From IMG/VR virus record IMGVR_UViG_3300048852_000104, positions 1 through 48,735 of that record: a stretch of DNA of 48,735 nucleotides. One strand, given 5' to 3'. The notes under the pieces are model-generated. The model searched no databases, was not told the origin of the DNA, and saw only the letters and a program-made list of their open reading frames with translations. This DNA is from a virus. Its lineage: Duplodnaviria > Caudoviricetes. Position 1 is the stretch's first letter, and every line of letters starts with the position of its first letter. The position numbers and the translations under genes were made by a program. Below, piece after piece: positions 17,349 to 48,127 of this stretch.

Positions 17349-17423
17349 CGCAGGCAGGGCAACTGGTAAGCCGCGTGGCTCATAACCACGAAAGACCGGG
17401 TTCGACTCCCGGGCCTGCAACCA
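17349..17423 (+). tRNA. tRNA-Met(CAT), initiator-like, non-canonical
   Basis: Cloverleaf; anticodon arm CGTGG-CTCATAA-CCACG; T arm CCGGG-TTCGACT-CCCGG; encoded CCA; C1-A72 mismatch. Confidence 0.8.
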
Positions 17424-40483: not shown

Positions 40484-41191
40484 TTATGCCCGTCTGATCA
40501 AATCGTAGATATTCTCCTGCGACGGGTCGGCGTCGGCATCATTCCAATCTTGTGTGTACATCATCGCGATGGGGTCATCTTCCAGAATTTCCCTATTGGT
40601 CTTTCTGGTCCAGGTGATGTTGTTTCGCAAAACCTTCGCCGGATAACCCCCGATCAGGCAGAACGGTCTGTTGAACTGCTTTGTAACGATAGAACCGAGC
40701 GCTACAACTGAACTTTGGCTGATCTTGGATCCCTTCATCAGCGTCACGCGCATGCCGCACCAGACGTAATCCTCTACGACCACGTCGCGCTCTTCGTTGA
40801 TCCGCTTGCGAGTTGCCAAATCGAACACTGGATGTGAATCAGTTGTTCGAATCTCGATCCCATTGGCGAACATGCAGTCCCTGCCAATCGTGATGGCACC
40901 TTTGAATGCGGTCATCGTACAGCGCCCAATTGTCGTGTAGTCGCCGATGGAGATCGTTCCCTTCCCGATGAGGGAAAGCATACCGGTTGCGAGAACGCTA
41001 TTACCTATCGACAGCTTGTTGCCGGTTCCCTCTATCCGGATGGTTAAGCCGTCGAAGTGGCACTGCTCACCGATCGTGATCTCGTTGTTGTCGCCTTCAA
41101 TACGGATCTGCGAGTTTTTGGCGACCCCGAAGCCCTCTGGTAGCGAAACAGTGTTGTTTCGCCCATTATCGACAACCGTGATCTGAGACAT
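40484..41191 (-). CDS. hexapeptide-repeat (LbH) acyltransferase, moron
   Basis: ITIG/ISIG repeats, RTTDSH, DYVWCG, SIVTK, GGYPAKV; lower GC. Confidence 0.85.
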   Translation of the reverse strand: MSQITVVDNGRNNTVSLPEGFGVAKNSQIRIEGDNNEITIGEQCHFDGLTIRIEGTGNKLSIGNSVLATGMLSLIGKGTISIGDYTTIGRCTMTAFKGAITIGRDCMFANGIEIRTTDSHPVFDLATRKRINEERDVVVEDYVWCGMRVTLMKGSKISQSSVVALGSIVTKQFNRPFCLIGGYPAKVLRNNITWTRKTNREILEDDPIAMMYTQDWNDADADPSQENIYDLIRRA

Positions 41192-41358
41192 TGGTGCCAC
41201 CCCCTGGAGTTGAATGGAACTCCTATACATATTCTCATGTTCGGGAAGCAAGCGGCTTTACTCGTAAGAGTGATGCTGAGGCTTATACTTCGTCCGGTTA
41301 CGTTGCCATGCTTTCCACCTCGGTTACCATTCGTGCACAATACGAGCCGCGTACGCGA

Positions 41359-41410
41359 GGGAGACAGAGTTTGCGGGGGTGTATGCCTGGGCGCAGAAGT
41401 TTCGAGCTAG
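41359..41410 (+). repeat. remnant copy of 3' end of LamG-like gene
   Basis: GTGTATGCCTGGGCGCAGAA at 41379-41398 identical to 40385-40404. Confidence 0.8.
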
Positions 41411-42201
41411 AACGACGTTCCTGGTGACAAGATTAGCAGGTCGCCGACTACTTTTTCTGTGTACCGGATCAGCTTGTCGATTGTTTCAAGCATCGGAAGA
41501 GCAGGCGGTTTGGCAGGATGCTCGATCCCCATCTCAGTCTTGAAAGTTGCGTCAACGTGAAATCCTGGGCATGGCTTTGCGAGGCCAACTCGCCATACTT
41601 CCTGTCCCGCATTGCGGACAATCGTGAGGGGCATCCCAAGACGCTCGATCTCTGCCGGTGCTGTTGGGGACCCAACCAAAATATTCTTGTTGACGCTGTA
41701 TGCCACAGTAACGACTGAGAGCGCGCGATGTTTGTGTAAGTTATTTAGATCGTGCAAAATCCAGAGCGTCGACTGGCTATTGTGATCCTCGACTTTATAG
41801 GGCTGCATAGCTTCGATTTTCAGAATCGATTGCTCTGCAAGACCAACAAGGCGTTTCCTTTCAACTTCCCGTCTGAAGTCTTTTTCAGATTTGGTGACCG
41901 GAAATTGATGAGAGGTGGCCGCTGCGTGCCCGTTTTCAACGGCCAGCCCTACCACAAGATGATCGAGTGTCGATCGCAACTGATGGAGTATGTCGCTGAC
42001 GCGCACGCTGAAGGATAGCGGCACGGGTTTCGGCGCGCTTTCCGTCGTGAAGATGTAGTTCAAATTGTCGGCATCTAGCTGCCCCCGAATTGCACCTGCA
42101 CCACCGTGCGAGAAGTATTCGGACTGCATGATTTGGACTTCATGCAGGATCTCTCGCGCGCGAGAGATTTTGGCCGAAATTCCATTTCGCCACGAGTGCA
42201 C
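41407..42201 (-). CDS. hypothetical moron protein, possibly HEPN-related
   Basis: HQLRSTLD, FP, QPY, LHDLNNLHKHR; AGGGG RBS; lower GC. Confidence 0.75.
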   Translation of the reverse strand: MHSWRNGISAKISRAREILHEVQIMQSEYFSHGGAGAIRGQLDADNLNYIFTTESAPKPVPLSFSVRVSDILHQLRSTLDHLVVGLAVENGHAAATSHQFPVTKSEKDFRREVERKRLVGLAEQSILKIEAMQPYKVEDHNSQSTLWILHDLNNLHKHRALSVVTVAYSVNKNILVGSPTAPAEIERLGMPLTIVRNAGQEVWRVGLAKPCPGFHVDATFKTEMGIEHPAKPPALPMLETIDKLIRYTEKVVGDLLILSPGTSF

Positions 42202-43871: not shown

Positions 43872-44264
43872 TTGGCTGAAACACAGGAAACCGAAAAGAT
43901 GGTCGCAACTCCGAAATGGCGGTTTGAATATAACCTCAACACCCTGGTGATCCTGTTCGGCTTCGCCGGCGGCCTCATTGCGTGGGGCGCGACGTGGGAG
44001 AGGGTGAACGCCAATCAGGACTCGCAGGCCAATTCGATCGATCGCCTCGACAAGCGTCTGACGGCTGCCGAGGTCTCCCTCCGGCAGATCGACAATCACG
44101 AGCTCCGGATCTCGGCGGTGGAGAAGCAAGCGGCTGAGGCGGCAACATCAATGAAGGCCGTCGAGAGCACGTTGAACAATCTCAGCTCCGATATGCGTCT
44201 TGTCCGCGAGATCCTGCAGCGCCTCGAGGATGGTGGGAGGCAGGGGAGCCAGCTTCGGCGCTAA
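43872..44264 (+). CDS. single-TM coiled-coil protein (holin-like position)
   Basis: TLVILFGFAGGLIAWG then coiled coil. Confidence 0.65.
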   Translation: MAETQETEKMVATPKWRFEYNLNTLVILFGFAGGLIAWGATWERVNANQDSQANSIDRLDKRLTAAEVSLRQIDNHELRISAVEKQAAEAATSMKAVESTLNNLSSDMRLVREILQRLEDGGRQGSQLRR

Positions 44265-44332: not shown

Positions 44333-45247
44333 CTATTTCGCAATGGCCTTCGGCTTAAATGCCTCGATTGCCTTGGTGGCTACTGCCGGCTTCACTTTCC
44401 CCAGTTTGGCCTGTCCCTGCAGATAATCTGACAGATGGGCCTCAAGATAGGTTTTACGAAACCACTTGCGGAACTCGCCGAGCGCTTCGTCCGGGTAGCA
44501 ATACGGCGTTTGCGGGTTAGAAAGCGCCTGCGGGAAGTAGACCGGATACTCATGCAGGTACTGCTTCCTCTCACCGAACAAGACTTCGAGGCTTTCCGCT
44601 TTCCAATGCTTCGCCCAGCGCTGACCGACGCTGATATCAGGCACGATATGGGGGCCAACATCAATCCCGGCATTGATCATGGGCACGATCATTCCGGCGA
44701 TTTCTTGATAGATACTGAAGTAACCGGCAGGGACTGCGTTGGCTACCAGGCTTACGCGATCGTGGAACTGCTGCCACGCAAGGCTGACCTTTCCGTCCGG
44801 GTTGTATCCAACTTGCGCATAGACGAAATCGGTGAAGCCCTTCTTGGCAAGCGTTCGATAGCTCTTGATCGCGTGATCGTTACCGGACACTTCAAAAGCA
44901 TAATATTCCAGAGCGGCCATGCAAACATGCGCGGGGACTGCGTGGTGAATGGTCCCGTTCTTCTTAACTGCATGGAAGAAGACGGTATCATCGAACCCTT
45001 GGGCCTTTATCAAGTCGCGGATCTTCTGTTCGCGACCTTTTGTCGGGATCTGGCCCCACTCGTCGGTCAGTTTCACAAGGGTGGAGATGGCTACGCCACA
45101 CATCCTGGAGAGGCCACGCAATGTCAAAAACGGCGTGCCGTCACCGAGGACACCCATTCCCACGCCGTCGATTTCGGCTTCGACGACGATCTCCAGATCG
45201 AAAGAGAGTTGGGAGGGGGTGATAGCCAAACTGGCTGAATCTGTCAT
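44333..45247 (-). CDS. bstA: BstA-like abortive infection protein
   Basis: GVGMGVL.DGTPFL..RGL...CGV, QFHDRVSL, PDISVG..W.KHW, YP.YFPQA.SNPQ...YP..ALGEFR.W. Confidence 0.85.
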   Translation of the reverse strand: MTDSASLAITPSQLSFDLEIVVEAEIDGVGMGVLGDGTPFLTLRGLSRMCGVAISTLVKLTDEWGQIPTKGREQKIRDLIKAQGFDDTVFFHAVKKNGTIHHAVPAHVCMAALEYYAFEVSGNDHAIKSYRTLAKKGFTDFVYAQVGYNPDGKVSLAWQQFHDRVSLVANAVPAGYFSIYQEIAGMIVPMINAGIDVGPHIVPDISVGQRWAKHWKAESLEVLFGERKQYLHEYPVYFPQALSNPQTPYCYPDEALGEFRKWFRKTYLEAHLSDYLQGQAKLGKVKPAVATKAIEAFKPKAIAK

Positions 45248-45510: not shown

Positions 45511-45624
45511 CATGCAAGGCGTCGAGAGTACGCTCAACAGCTTTCGATCGATACGCGTGTGATGCGCGAAATCCTGCAGAGGATCGAAGCAGGCCAGCGG
45601 GACGGCGCGCAGCTGCGGCGCTGA
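45511..45624 (+). pseudogene. frameshifted remnant of 3' end of a homologue of 43872..44264
   Basis: VESTLN / MREILQRIEAGQRDGAQLRR* vs VESTLN / VREILQRLEDGGRQGSQLRR*. Confidence 0.8.
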
Positions 45625-45761
45625 GTTGCCAGGGCATTGTTGGAGACGGCAGACAAGAGTGGCAGCGCCCTGAGGGGACGGGGGGGCGCCGCCGTGCGGC
45701 CGCTCGGGGGGGGGAGAGCCGGCCGCTTCTTCGCGAAGGAGTCGCTTCTGCGTGAGCGACG
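45625..45761 (-). ncRNA. candidate EcfG-dependent sRNA C (cuckoo-like)
   Basis: GGAAC-N16-GGTT at 45768-45792; hairpins with loops TCCCCCCCCC and CCCCGTCCCCTCA; 3' end uncertain. Confidence 0.55.
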
Positions 45762-45834
45762 ATGCACAACCCATCAGATTTCAGATGGTTCCAACAGAAT
45801 GATGCGACGCGCAGCTGCCGAAGGTTCTGCTTTG

Positions 45835-45953
45835 TGAAAGGGGCAGCGCTCCGGGCAAATGCGATAAGCGGAGCGCTGCAGTTGTCCGACATGTGCGATT
45901 GTCCGCAAGTCGAACTTCCAGAGGAGAAAACAACCTTCTGAAATAGGAACGCC
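45835..45953 (-). ncRNA. candidate EcfG-dependent sRNA B
   Basis: GGAAC-N16-CGTT at 45960-45984; three hairpins ending GCAGCGCTCCG/CGGAGCGCTGC-CCCTTT. Confidence 0.5.
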
Positions 45954-46017
45954 CCTCAAAACGGTGTGTGGGCGGGAATGTTCCGGATCAATGTTCATTT
46001 TTGAGGATTGACCAATT

Positions 46018-46260
46018 TCAAGCCGGCTCCGGTAGCGGCTGCTGGGGAAGGGGCCGGTCGCCTCCATCGCCGCCGTCGTCATCCGGCCACCAACCCTGCC
46101 AATCATCTCCTAGAGCCTCCCTGGCCTGACTGCCGTCAAGACGGGAGATGAGCATCTGAAGCAGCTCGTCCTCTGAAATGCCGCTCGTCGGCGGAAGGTA
46201 GGCGGCAATATCCTTCTGGCAATCCCAGATCAGCTTCTTCATCTTTTGCGCGTCGGCCAT
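46018..46260 (-). CDS. small hypothetical protein
   Basis: AGGAG RBS; GGAAC-N16-TGTT at 46283-46307. Confidence 0.7.
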   Translation of the reverse strand: MADAQKMKKLIWDCQKDIAAYLPPTSGISEDELLQMLISRLDGSQAREALGDDWQGWWPDDDGGDGGDRPLPQQPLPEPA

Positions 46261-46366
46261 GACCTGTCTCCTTGGCCCGATCAACACGTCACGGCGCGTG
46301 AGGTTCCAGACCTTGCCGAGGTCTGAACGGGTCCTATCCTCCTTGGTTGTTAGATGGAGGAAAAGC

Positions 46367-46540
46367 ATGGCAGATAATCCGAAGAAAAAAGGGCGCGACC
46401 GCGAGCTCGTTTCCGAGCAAGAGCACGAGGTCGCATATCTGATGCGAACGGCAAAGGTGACGCGGCAGAAGGCGCTTCAGGCCATTCGCGAGGCCGGGCC
46501 GAACCGCGACAAGGTGATGGCGTATCTTCAGAGCAAGTAG
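46367..46540 (+). CDS. DUF3606-like small protein
   Basis: MAD..KK..DR..VS.Q.HEV.Y....V......AI...G..R..V; GGAGG RBS; TGAAC-N16-GGTT at 46324-46348. Confidence 0.8.
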   Translation: MADNPKKKGRDRELVSEQEHEVAYLMRTAKVTRQKALQAIREAGPNRDKVMAYLQSK

Positions 46541-46546
46541 AAGGCT

Positions 46547-46629
46547 AGAAAAAGTGAGTGCCTGCCGAGGGGACAGGGCAGGCACTCTGAACAGGTTGGG
46601 GGACCTGGTGCCACGAAATGCGCGGCGCA
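46547..46629 (-). ncRNA. candidate EcfG-dependent sRNA A with C-rich loops
   Basis: GGAAC-N16-CGTT at 46635-46659; CAGGT-CCCCCA-ACCTG; GAGTGCCTGCC-CTGTCCCCTC-GGCAGGCACTC-ACTTTTT terminator. Confidence 0.65.
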
Positions 46630-46667
46630 CCGATAACGCATCTCGTGCCACTTTGTTCCCGATGGTC

Positions 46668-46994
46668 CTATAGTCTCGTCCGCATCCATTCCTCATTGTC
46701 GAGCATGCACTGCAGGTCCTCCGGCATCATGCCCGGCCATTCGCACCTCAGGACAGCTGCGTAGCACGCCTCAGCTTCAAGAGCTGCCGCCCTTGCCGAA
46801 TCTGCCTGACCGTTCGGGCGTTTCCATCTGCTCGCGTTCCTTGCCCAGTGCCAGCACATGAACCAGTTCCACCAGCCCATATGATACCAGTGGATGTGTG
46901 CGAATTTTCGTTCGCCATCGAAGCCGGTAAAATGTTTCGGGTGATCGGGCCATGTCTGCCGCCATTTGTATTTCGGTTTGGGGAGATCGGACAT
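46668..46994 (-). CDS. Trp-rich hypothetical protein, SOS-controlled
   Basis: GAGGAGG RBS; KYKWRQTW...; LexA box in promoter. Confidence 0.7.
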   Translation of the reverse strand: MSDLPKPKYKWRQTWPDHPKHFTGFDGERKFAHIHWYHMGWWNWFMCWHWARNASRWKRPNGQADSARAAALEAEACYAAVLRCEWPGMMPEDLQCMLDNEEWMRTRL

Positions 46995-47068: not shown

Positions 47069-47102
47069 GTTCCTAATATGTTCTCTCAGCCGAAAGAGTC
47101 AA
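47069..47102 (-). promoter_or_regulatory. alphaproteobacterial LexA box over -10 of leftward promoter
   Basis: GTTC-N7-GTTC at 47069-47083; TTGACT-N16-CATATT on minus strand. Confidence 0.8.
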
Positions 47103-47137: not shown

Positions 47138-48127
47138 ATGGCCAGAGCATCCTCGAAGAAGCCCCGTGATACCCCTCCGATCGATCCTATGCCCGCGCGC
47201 GTCGATCCCTGCCTTGCAACGCTCGTCGACAAGCCGCCGAAAGGGCAGGACTGGGCCTACGAAGTGAAATGGGACGGGTACCGGGTCGCGGTTCACATCG
47301 AGCCCGGCCGGGTGCGGATACTCACGCGCGGCGGGTACGATTGGACCGATCGCTTTCCCTCGATCGTTGACGACGCGCGGCGGCTCGCCGTGAAGACGGC
47401 CATCCTGGACGGGGAGGCAGTCGTGCTCGACGACAAGGGCCGTTCCGATTTCGGGAAGCTACAGCGGGCGCTCGGAAGATTGCCATCGGCAGTCGAAGCC
47501 GGCGCCATCGTCTTCTATGCCTTCGATCTCATTTATCTCGACGGCCGCGACCTGCGCCGCCTGCCGCTGCGCGAGCGCCGGCGGCTGCTCGACCCGCTTG
47601 TGGTCGACCGGGAAGGCGCCGTTCGCCTTTCGGAGGAGGTGCAGGCTGACGGCGACGAGTTCTTCCGCGTTGCCTGTGCGCACGGCCTCGAAGGCATCAT
47701 CGCCAAGCATATCGAAAAGCCATATCGCTCTGGCCGGGGCGAGTGGTGGCAGAAGATCACCTGCAAGCGCCGCGACAGCTTCGTGATCGTCGGCTTCGAG
47801 CCGTCAACCGTGCCTGGTCATCTCGGCCGGCTGCTGCTGGCGGCGCGCAAAGACGGCGAGCTCGTCTACGTCGGCGGGTGCGGTACCGGCTGGTCAAATC
47901 AGCTTTCGCGCGAGCTACGCAAATTGCTCGAGGGTATGGCGACGAAGACGCCGGCCGTGGCCCTCAGGAGGAAAGGCGCCGTCTTTGTCGAGCCGGTTCT
48001 GGTCGCCGAGGTCGAGTATCGCGCCTGGACGGATGACGGGAAGCTTCGGCACGCATCGTTCAAGGGGATAAGGCCGAGAGAGGACGAGGCGGCAGTGTTC
48101 CAGCTCTTCGAAGGTATCGAGGAATAG
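47138..48127 (+). CDS. ligD: ATP-dependent DNA ligase (LigD ligase domain)
   Basis: EVKWDGYR, ILDGE, FDL, EGIIAK, YRSGR..W.K, LRHASFKG.R. Confidence 0.92.
   Translation: MARASSKKPRDTPPIDPMPARVDPCLATLVDKPPKGQDWAYEVKWDGYRVAVHIEPGRVRILTRGGYDWTDRFPSIVDDARRLAVKTAILDGEAVVLDDKGRSDFGKLQRALGRLPSAVEAGAIVFYAFDLIYLDGRDLRRLPLRERRRLLDPLVVDREGAVRLSEEVQADGDEFFRVACAHGLEGIIAKHIEKPYRSGRGEWWQKITCKRRDSFVIVGFEPSTVPGHLGRLLLAARKDGELVYVGGCGTGWSNQLSRELRKLLEGMATKTPAVALRRKGAVFVEPVLVAEVEYRAWTDDGKLRHASFKGIRPREDEAAVFQLFEGIEE

Follow-up and report, generated by a model that had tools for sequence, protein, structure and literature searches.

A variable cargo slot of Sinorhizobium prophages holds RpoE2-type promoters and relatives of catalogued Sinorhizobium meliloti stress sRNAs

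Why should a temperate phage carry, between its lysis genes and a DNA ligase, a cluster of promoters that seem to belong to the general stress response of its host? The question is raised by a virus record of 48.7 kb, analysed here over its whole length and referred to below as the window. PHROG matches assign its genes to repressor, replication, head, tail and lysis modules, as in a temperate siphovirus-like prophage; the first bases are the first codons of its integrase, and its host is Sinorhizobium. We did not file it as phiLM21-like, because its best terminase matches are not to phiLM21. At the right end the endolysin and the holin-like gene are followed by a BstA homolog, then by a second copy of the holin-like 3' end, the cassette of interest and an ATP-dependent ligase (Table 1). 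The box upstream of the ligase is one that we take to be an alphaproteobacterial LexA box.

Table 1. Features of the cassette and its borders (positions in the window)
Feature	Position	Strand	Basis and remarks
Holin-like membrane/coiled-coil gene	43872..44264	+	left slot border; phrog_736, unknown function; weak XhlA match (E 4e-4); 3' of endolysin and Rz-like ORFs; label tentative
Duplicated 3' end of holin-like gene	45516..45624	+	RNA3 end abuts the duplicate, as SmelB127 end abuts the holin-like stop codon in relatives
RNA3, ~107 nt	45654..45760	-	three hairpins, C-rich loops; divergent relative of SmelB127
RpoE2/EcfG-type promoter P4 of RNA3	45768..45792	-	motif; tandem position matches RpoE2 promoter of SMb_sRNA_433/SmelB127
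RNA2, ~112 nt	45838..45950	-	SmelB126/SmelA060/SmelA072/smB9 family; loops not C-rich
RpoE2/EcfG-type promoter P3 of RNA2	45960..45984	-	motif; homologous promoters of SMb_sRNA_432 and SMb_sRNA_381 RACE-mapped, RpoE2-dependent
80-aa protein, no known family	46018..46260	-	homolog of SMb21400 and SMa0450
RpoE2/EcfG-type promoter P2	46283..46307	-	motif; back to back with RpoH-type promoter; in 31/45 related regions
RpoH-type promoter of DUF3606 gene, CTTGCC-N15-CCTATCC	46312..46339	+	overlapped by the proposed fifth EcfG motif, 46324-46348
DUF3606 protein, 56 aa	46370..46540	+	Pfam PF12244, E 4e-15; phrog_35803; homolog of SMb21683; convergent on RNA1 terminator
RNA1, ~80 nt	46549..46628	-	three hairpins; loops UCCCCCA and CUGUCCCCUC; U-tailed terminator; homolog of SmelB128 and SmelB008; ends placed by homology
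RpoE2/EcfG-type promoter P1 of RNA1	46635..46659	-	motif; homolog listed with RpoE2 promoter 5' of SmelB128
108-aa slot protein, unknown function	46668..46994	-	phrog_12188; recurrent neighbour of RNA1 in related prophages
GTTC-N7-GTTC box 5' of ligase	47069..47083	+	4 such matches in window; region conserved in relatives
ATP-dependent (NHEJ-type) DNA ligase	47138..48127	+	right slot border; Pfam; TIGR02779 above cut-off; 65% identical to last gene of phage phiLM21

A sequence-only reading of this DNA had proposed five EcfG (RpoE2) promoters here. A pattern search of the window returns all five motifs exactly at the coordinates and on the strands it gave; four of them stand as RpoE2-type promoters in a real cluster, but the fifth (46324-46348) does not. 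GGAAC-N17-GTT matches six times in the window, four of these on the minus strand within 45768-46659. Local enrichment, which the same reading had implied, is borne out by 200 order-3 Markov simulations, which gave a mean of 1.5 matches per window and never more than two within 900 bp. Taking in the fifth motif requires the looser GAAC-N17/18-GTT, which has 22 matches in the window and reached five in 900 bp in 5/200 simulations. In P1-P4 the spacing between the GGAAC and GTT boxes is that of the consensus, and homologs retain the boxes. Conservation of the boxes in our alignments A1-A3 was set aside as circular, because the rows had been picked by the motif. Covariance models built without promoters allow a fairer count: among hits with returned loci, the strict motif lies directly upstream of 9/33 for RNA1, 22/33 for RNA3 and 5/9 for RNA2, against a background of 0.7%, and GGAAC alone occurs at -40 to -19 in 25/33, 24/33 and 5/9, respectively.

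Experiments on homologs bear on these promoters. For P3, transcript start and RpoE2 dependence were shown by RACE (SmelB126 and SMb_sRNA_381; PMC3616915). The start behind the P1 homolog (SmelB128) was mapped (PMC2873474), its RpoE2 dependence being predicted only (PMC3616915), and the P4 homolog has a mapped start within an induced intergenic region (PMC3616915). Two smaller observations may be added. At 45946-45984 the GGAAC box of P3 and a GTTCC at the start of RNA2 form an inverted repeat, kept in 19/20 rows. Other conserved RpoE2-type motifs lie outside the slot in the related genomes G182-G185: one precedes a small gene that is divergent from the endolysin, and another is at a distance of about 1.5 kb from the integrase end.

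The fifth promoter is most likely of the RpoH type. As an EcfG promoter it recurs in 0/45 distinct regions upstream of DUF3606 homologs, whereas an RpoH-type CTTG(A/C/T)(A/C)-N14-17-CCTAT is found in 42 of these 45 (30/45 with a stricter pattern). In strain 1021 the start of SMb21683 was assigned an RpoH-class promoter, CTTGCC-N15-CCTATTC (PMC3616915). The DUF3606 ORF itself is present as described, with its PF12244 match, and so is the 80-aa ORF. A homolog of the DUF3606 gene is translated (TE 41; PMC10117765), and SMb21683 rises by 1.39 log2 upon rpoE2 overexpression (PMC3616915). Since rpoH2 is itself RpoE2-dependent (PMC3616915), the gene would still be part of the stress response, one step later.

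Downstream of P2 relatives have the 80-aa gene or a short hydrophobic ORF, and such short ORFs replace the 80-aa gene in many prophages. The 80-aa protein has no match in Pfam, PHROG, NCBIfam or the Atlas. Its homolog SMb21400 is translated at TE 4 (PMC10117765), and the paralog SMa0450 rises by 3.3 log2 upon rpoE2 overexpression (PMC3616915). SMb21400 is not in the overexpression table of the same source, and no mapped start stands behind the 1021 pSymB copy of P2 (PMC3616915). A side observation concerns SMa_sRNA_126 (NC_003037 1021704 onward; L006:11673), published as an RpoE2-dependent non-coding RNA: read by eye, it has a Shine-Dalgarno sequence and a hydrophobic ORF of about 28 codons, and homologous short ORFs occur in P2 units of the loci L008, L011, L016 and L023.

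What, then, do P1, P3 and P4 drive? The three ORF-less stretches behind them had been called hairpin-rich, and they are: each folds into three hairpins, with z = -5.6 (RNA1), -4.6 (RNA2) and -2.7 (RNA3). Judged by sequence, RNA1 and RNA2 are homologs of catalogued S. meliloti sRNAs; RNA3 is related more distantly. RNA1 is identical to the SmelB128 copy at 66 of 80 aligned bases (82%) and belongs by sequence and three-hairpin homology to the SmelB128/SmelB008 family, for which there are model hits in strain 1021. SmelB128 (pSymB 1331218-1331295, 78 nt) likewise has three hairpins (PMC2873474). It is catalogued as antisense to SMb21399 (NC_003078 1330868-1331272), an ORF that is barely translated (TE 0.14; PMC10117765) and is probably spurious. 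RNA2 shares 88 of 109 aligned bases with SmelB126 (blastn gives 81% over 222 nt) and falls in the RFM SmelB126 family by sequence and by terminator homology to SmelB126 and SmelA060. For RNA3 the identity to SmelB127 is 56/103 aligned bases (54%), and there is no direct blastn match between the two. A profile of 23 genomic homologs finds RNA3 at full length (E 1e-5), with high composition bias and slight circularity, the homologs having been gathered by a model with RNA3 as one of its 15 rows. RNA3 shares tandem position and 3' neighbour with SmelB127, and the tandem order of SmelB126 then SmelB127 matches that of RNA2 then RNA3. An equation of RNA3 with SMa_sRNA_126 was rejected: that transcript contains a short ORF and groups with P2 units.

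Transcription has been shown for the homologs SmelB126, SmelB127 and SmelB128 (PMC2873474, PMC3616915), and Northern blots of SmelA060/072 show a signal only upon exposure to 40 C or 400 mM NaCl (PMC2873474). The SmelB126 family has been linked to mobile elements in a paper whose accessible text nowhere mentions phage (PMC3927594). The impact of RpoE2 sRNAs was called unknown in 2018 (PMC6180224).

How well are these structures kept? In RNA1 homologs 99% of alignment cells are paired, and 3/19 pairs are changed on both sides, all in the terminator (16 distinct rows). RNA3-type stems show 5/15 such pairs, one of them in the middle helix. In RNA2 the terminator alone is well kept (98.9% paired, zero two-sided changes; first helix 68%). 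A caution is that almost all of the two-sided changes are in terminator helices, as any terminator would show. Stems are kept while loops vary in the RNA1 and RNA3 alignments. The suggestion that the loops are C-rich in the manner of Caulobacter GsrN is right for RNA1 and RNA3 but wrong for RNA2 (0/6 homologs). After removal of 9 weak loci, hairpin-loop C content is 55% in 30 RNA1 homologs, 51% in 29 RNA3 homologs and 22% in six RNA2 homologs; a Shine-Dalgarno sequence with a start codon lies inside the RNA in 5/30, 4/29 and 1/6 of these.

In covariance-model searches the slot RNAs were found almost exclusively in Sinorhizobium. Among 32 genomes of the genus, RNA1 is found in 21, RNA3 in 16 and RNA2 in three; in a family-wide sample searched with the RNA1 and RNA3 models, RNA1 is found in 2/151 and RNA3 in 4/151, three of the latter weak and promoter-less. 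An Rfam scan of the window gives a single tRNA at gathering level and no family for RNA1-3, and the cassette has no blastn match among 50,697 GenBank phage records.

Is the cassette phage DNA at all? It might instead be host DNA beyond attR, taken into the virus record. The last 690 bases of the window match S. meliloti pSymB at 80-90%, so that a small doubt on the boundary remains, and attR was not located in the window. In relatives with this integrase the att core reads as the 5' half of tRNA-Leu(UAA), an att site reported for Sinorhizobium prophages (PMC12429752, PMC5537653). The window lacks that core, which places attR further right unless it is missing, and this speaks against a host origin of the cassette. 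In a relative (L012) a 22-base tRNA-Arg(CCG) att repeat lies right of the ligase; phage phiLM21 has the ligase as its last gene; and the pSymB DNA that matches the end of the window is a phage relic in its own right. Moreover, the slot is found at the same place in other prophages, including a chromosomal prophage and five complete proviruses. We consider a host origin of this kind very improbable, and the placement of the cassette in the prophage by the sequence-only reading is upheld.

The cassette occupies a variable cargo slot between the holin-like gene and the ligase that is common to many Sinorhizobium prophages. To describe it, 65 viral contigs were chosen by matches to the DUF3606 or the 80-aa protein or to an RNA1 pattern; in this selected set, which gives no measure of prevalence, 48 contigs have at least one promoter-RNA unit, 33 at least two and 16 at least three. 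The strict promoter is kept by 84/101 viral units. All 73 units in loci with both lysis gene and ligase lie between the two (the loci cover 4-12 kb around the slot, which favours this outcome) and are oriented toward the lysis genes. In the five complete proviruses, which were picked because they have the cassette, the slot of about 2 kb contains 21 of the 36 strict motifs; a reversed control pattern occurs 13 times in all. Up to five promoters are found per slot, and at least five RNA types occupy it. Like prophage morons, the units have their own promoter and terminator, lie between genes that are adjacent in relatives and vary among relatives. Four sequenced Sinorhizobium phages, phiLM21, phi2LM21, phi3LM21 and StopSmel, have the ligase, and in the right-end stretches searched none of them (0/4) has the RNAs; the cargo is thus dispensable.

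Further RNA types with an RpoE2 motif and a common GGCAGCGCC terminator stem are seen in the slot at L008:3454-3561 (-), L008:3627-3722 (-) and L020:3133-3228 (-); two of these three fold well (z -5.4 and -4.3) and one does not (z -0.6). The BstA abortive-infection homolog (window 44333-45244, minus strand; phrog_6287, E 3e-96) is flanked by the duplicated holin-like 3' end, an arrangement that suggests a past insertion into the slot.

Where do the copies of the laboratory strain come from? On pSymB of 1021, between 1318 and 1340 kb, SmelB126, SmelB127, SmelB128, the DUF3606 gene and the 80-aa gene lie among phage-like genes: the identity to the window is 89% over the 1.7 kb of endolysin, Rz-like and holin-like genes and 86% for the ligase, and ISRm1 (1325890-1327109) interrupts the holin-like gene. 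These copies sit in the decayed right arm of a phage of this type. In genome G167 the region matching the relic lies about 3 kb from tRNA-Arg(CCG), a reported prophage site on pSymB (PMC5537653). By our models the two megaplasmids of 1021 have 11 distinct family members, SmelB008 included. Six of them are surrounded by DNA that is 28-83% slot-like, two by 10-16% and three (SmelB008 and the members at 30.4 kb and 346 kb of pSymB) by 0-2%. The flanks of these last three, which are host-resident paralogs, are kept in other genomes, at 0.91-1.0 in 5/8, 0.88-1.0 in 3/3 and 0.77-0.88 in 2/4 of those compared, respectively. We infer an old host sRNA family that phages may have taken up, diversified and left behind again as relics.

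Several suggestions can be made regarding what the slot is for. One reading, for which we would claim somewhat less than an even chance, is a dedicated general-stress slot, in which prophages stack and swap members of an RpoE2-driven sRNA superfamily together with small proteins, so that each lysogen would have a post-transcriptional stress layer of its own; several known RpoE2 sRNAs of 1021 would then be domesticated relics. The same variability can be read as near-neutral hitch-hiking, in which host stress sRNAs pass through a recombination hot spot that exchanges modules with the relic arrays of pSymA and pSymB at no benefit to the phage. Slot content varies widely and some phages have none, the tandem relic arrays on pSymB are 76-93% identical to prophage slots, and duplicated holin-like 3' ends mark repeated exchange. 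Neutral drift, on the other hand, sits poorly with intact promoters and stems, with the strict motif in most viral units and the single orientation of all those counted above, and with a slot filled by so many RNA types. We hold such hitch-hiking to be unlikely, while giving it some weight.

How might the RNAs act? Our preferred reading, by analogy with known systems and at about even odds, is that they are driven by RpoE2 and act in trans, by pairing with the leaders of mRNAs where these are G-rich. GsrN pairs with the katG leader through C-rich loops (PMC5869019), and AbcR and NfeR1 act on ribosome-binding sites through such loops (PMC7143759). In the lysogen, host RpoE2 would likely transcribe the three promoter-RNA-terminator units; their exposed loops would likely base-pair with host mRNAs at G-rich leaders, with probable help from Hfq; through RpoH2 the DUF3606 gene would enter this response a step later; and the lysogen might gain survival under heat, salt or stationary phase. 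Units are likely exchanged through recombination, both between prophages and with the phage relics of pSymA and pSymB, which would add doses and seed variants to an sRNA family already owned by the host. Expression from this particular prophage is predicted; public RNA runs give small shares only, counted over all contigs and probably including DNA, and so bear on it neither way.

In the search for targets no candidate stood up. A scan within the phage finds generic G-rich ribosome-binding sites only. In G167 the host target pattern TGGGGGAC-N3-10-ATG has three matches, one of them before a long ORF, a MHYT-PAS-GGDEF gene. That site, TGGGGGAC upstream of the start codon (L271; G167:C2:427925-427939), is complementary to the middle loop of RNA1. 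As a target the gene is a weak candidate, the site being kept in 3/13 genomes with RNA1 and 0/8 without.

The orientation of the units suggests that they might instead act on the phage itself. Stress-induced transcription would run against the late operon, and late transcripts would be terminated or made unstable by an RNA3-type hairpin located at the stop codon of the holin-like gene, so that leaky lysis would be damped in stressed lysogens. All 73 units do point toward the lysis genes, the mapped 3' end of SmelB127 coincides with the holin-like stop codon (PMC2873474), and the predicted pairing of RNA3 loops with the ribosome-binding sites of the holin-like and helicase genes is in the 0-1.5% tail of the background; with 39 genes and 9 loops tested, however, tail hits are expected at G-rich sites. 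Each unit has its own terminator, and paralogs far from phage genes keep their synteny across species, neither of which fits an action on late transcripts. Opposite orientation is, besides, common among morons. We think this role quite unlikely.

A decoy function can also be imagined. The RNAs might titrate Hfq or a protein that binds C-rich loops, or the stacked promoters might titrate the RpoE2 holoenzyme, with no specific mRNA targets in either case, and so shift the stress response. Similar loops are repeated within one RNA, RNA3 bears a weak likeness to the Rfam 6C model (21 bits, cut-off 47), and one slot can hold as many as five promoters. Yet loop sequences differ between RNA types, and a handful of extra promoters is small against a regulon of some 200 genes (PMC3616915). 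Sponging of the host's own RpoE2 RNA at the phyR locus was rejected: its loops are similarly C-rich, so that slot RNAs would mimic it rather than sponge it. Overall a decoy seems to us improbable, and we return to the preferred reading of trans-acting sRNAs.

How new is any of this? The sequence-only reading knew of no described phage-borne EcfG sRNA battery. The RNAs themselves have been described through their homologs: the S. meliloti RpoE2 sRNAs SmelB126/smB9/SmelA060/SmelA072, SmelB127 (SMb_sRNA_433), SmelB128 and SmelB008 resemble RNA1-3 in sequence, promoter, length and three-hairpin fold (PMC2873474, PMC3616915, PMC3927594). Those papers treat them as genes of the megaplasmids with no known function and with, at most, a link to mobile elements, while the RNAs of the window are prophage cargo. 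Of that context we found no report in the open literature; subscription journals, an Hfq co-immunoprecipitation study or supplements may hold one. The accessible text of a paper on Sinorhizobium prophages makes no mention of sRNA, RpoE, promoters or DUF3606 (PMC12429752). The new part is therefore the prophage slot and the relic origin of several laboratory-strain copies, the RNAs being already known, with no published function that we could find.

Other systems share some of these features. Caulobacter GsrN and the GsrN-like RNA of the rhizobial phyR locus have an EcfG-type promoter and exposed C-rich loops, as do RNA1 and RNA3 (PMC5869019). Sequence homologs of GsrN are limited to Caulobacteraceae and it is a core gene, typically by phyR (PMC5869019), whereas the slot RNAs are not at the phyR-nepR-ecfG locus, and covariance models of RNA1-3 give no match to the S. 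meliloti phyR-locus RNA. The sRNAs alpha-r14/NfeR1 (cuckoo) and alpha-r15/AbcR have three hairpins, anti-Shine-Dalgarno-like loops and several copies per genome, as the slot RNAs do (PMC7143759). NfeR1, however, has a sigma-70 promoter and one motif in all loops (PMC7143759), and the slot RNAs have RpoE2-type promoters. Identity of the window RNAs with alpha-r14/cuckoo was rejected, there being no common anti-Shine-Dalgarno motif across all loops and no Rfam model match. Small RNAs as prophage cargo expressed in the lysogen are known from enterobacteria and Staphylococcus (anti-sRNAs, StxS, DicF, IsrK, SprY; PMC4104026, PMC12197685). In the accessible parts of these two papers none is rhizobial and none is under a host general-stress sigma factor; StxS acts upstream of RpoS, whereas the slot RNAs would act downstream of the stress sigma factor.

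The slot gives a phage origin and a family structure to stress sRNAs of S. meliloti that were catalogued in 2010-2013. It also suggests that the effect of deleting a single sRNA may be hidden by its paralogs, of which the two megaplasmids of 1021 have some eleven. Whether prophages alter rhizobial stress tolerance through RNAs wired to the general-stress sigma factor of the host becomes a testable question, and such tolerance matters for the survival of inoculants in soil.

The window has other cargo as well. Two genes between tail fibre and endolysin (40484-42201, minus strand) encode a hexapeptide-repeat transferase-like protein and a 264-aa protein without a match in Pfam or PHROG, and a tRNA with anticodon CAT (17349-17420, plus strand) lies 3' of the antiterminator gene.
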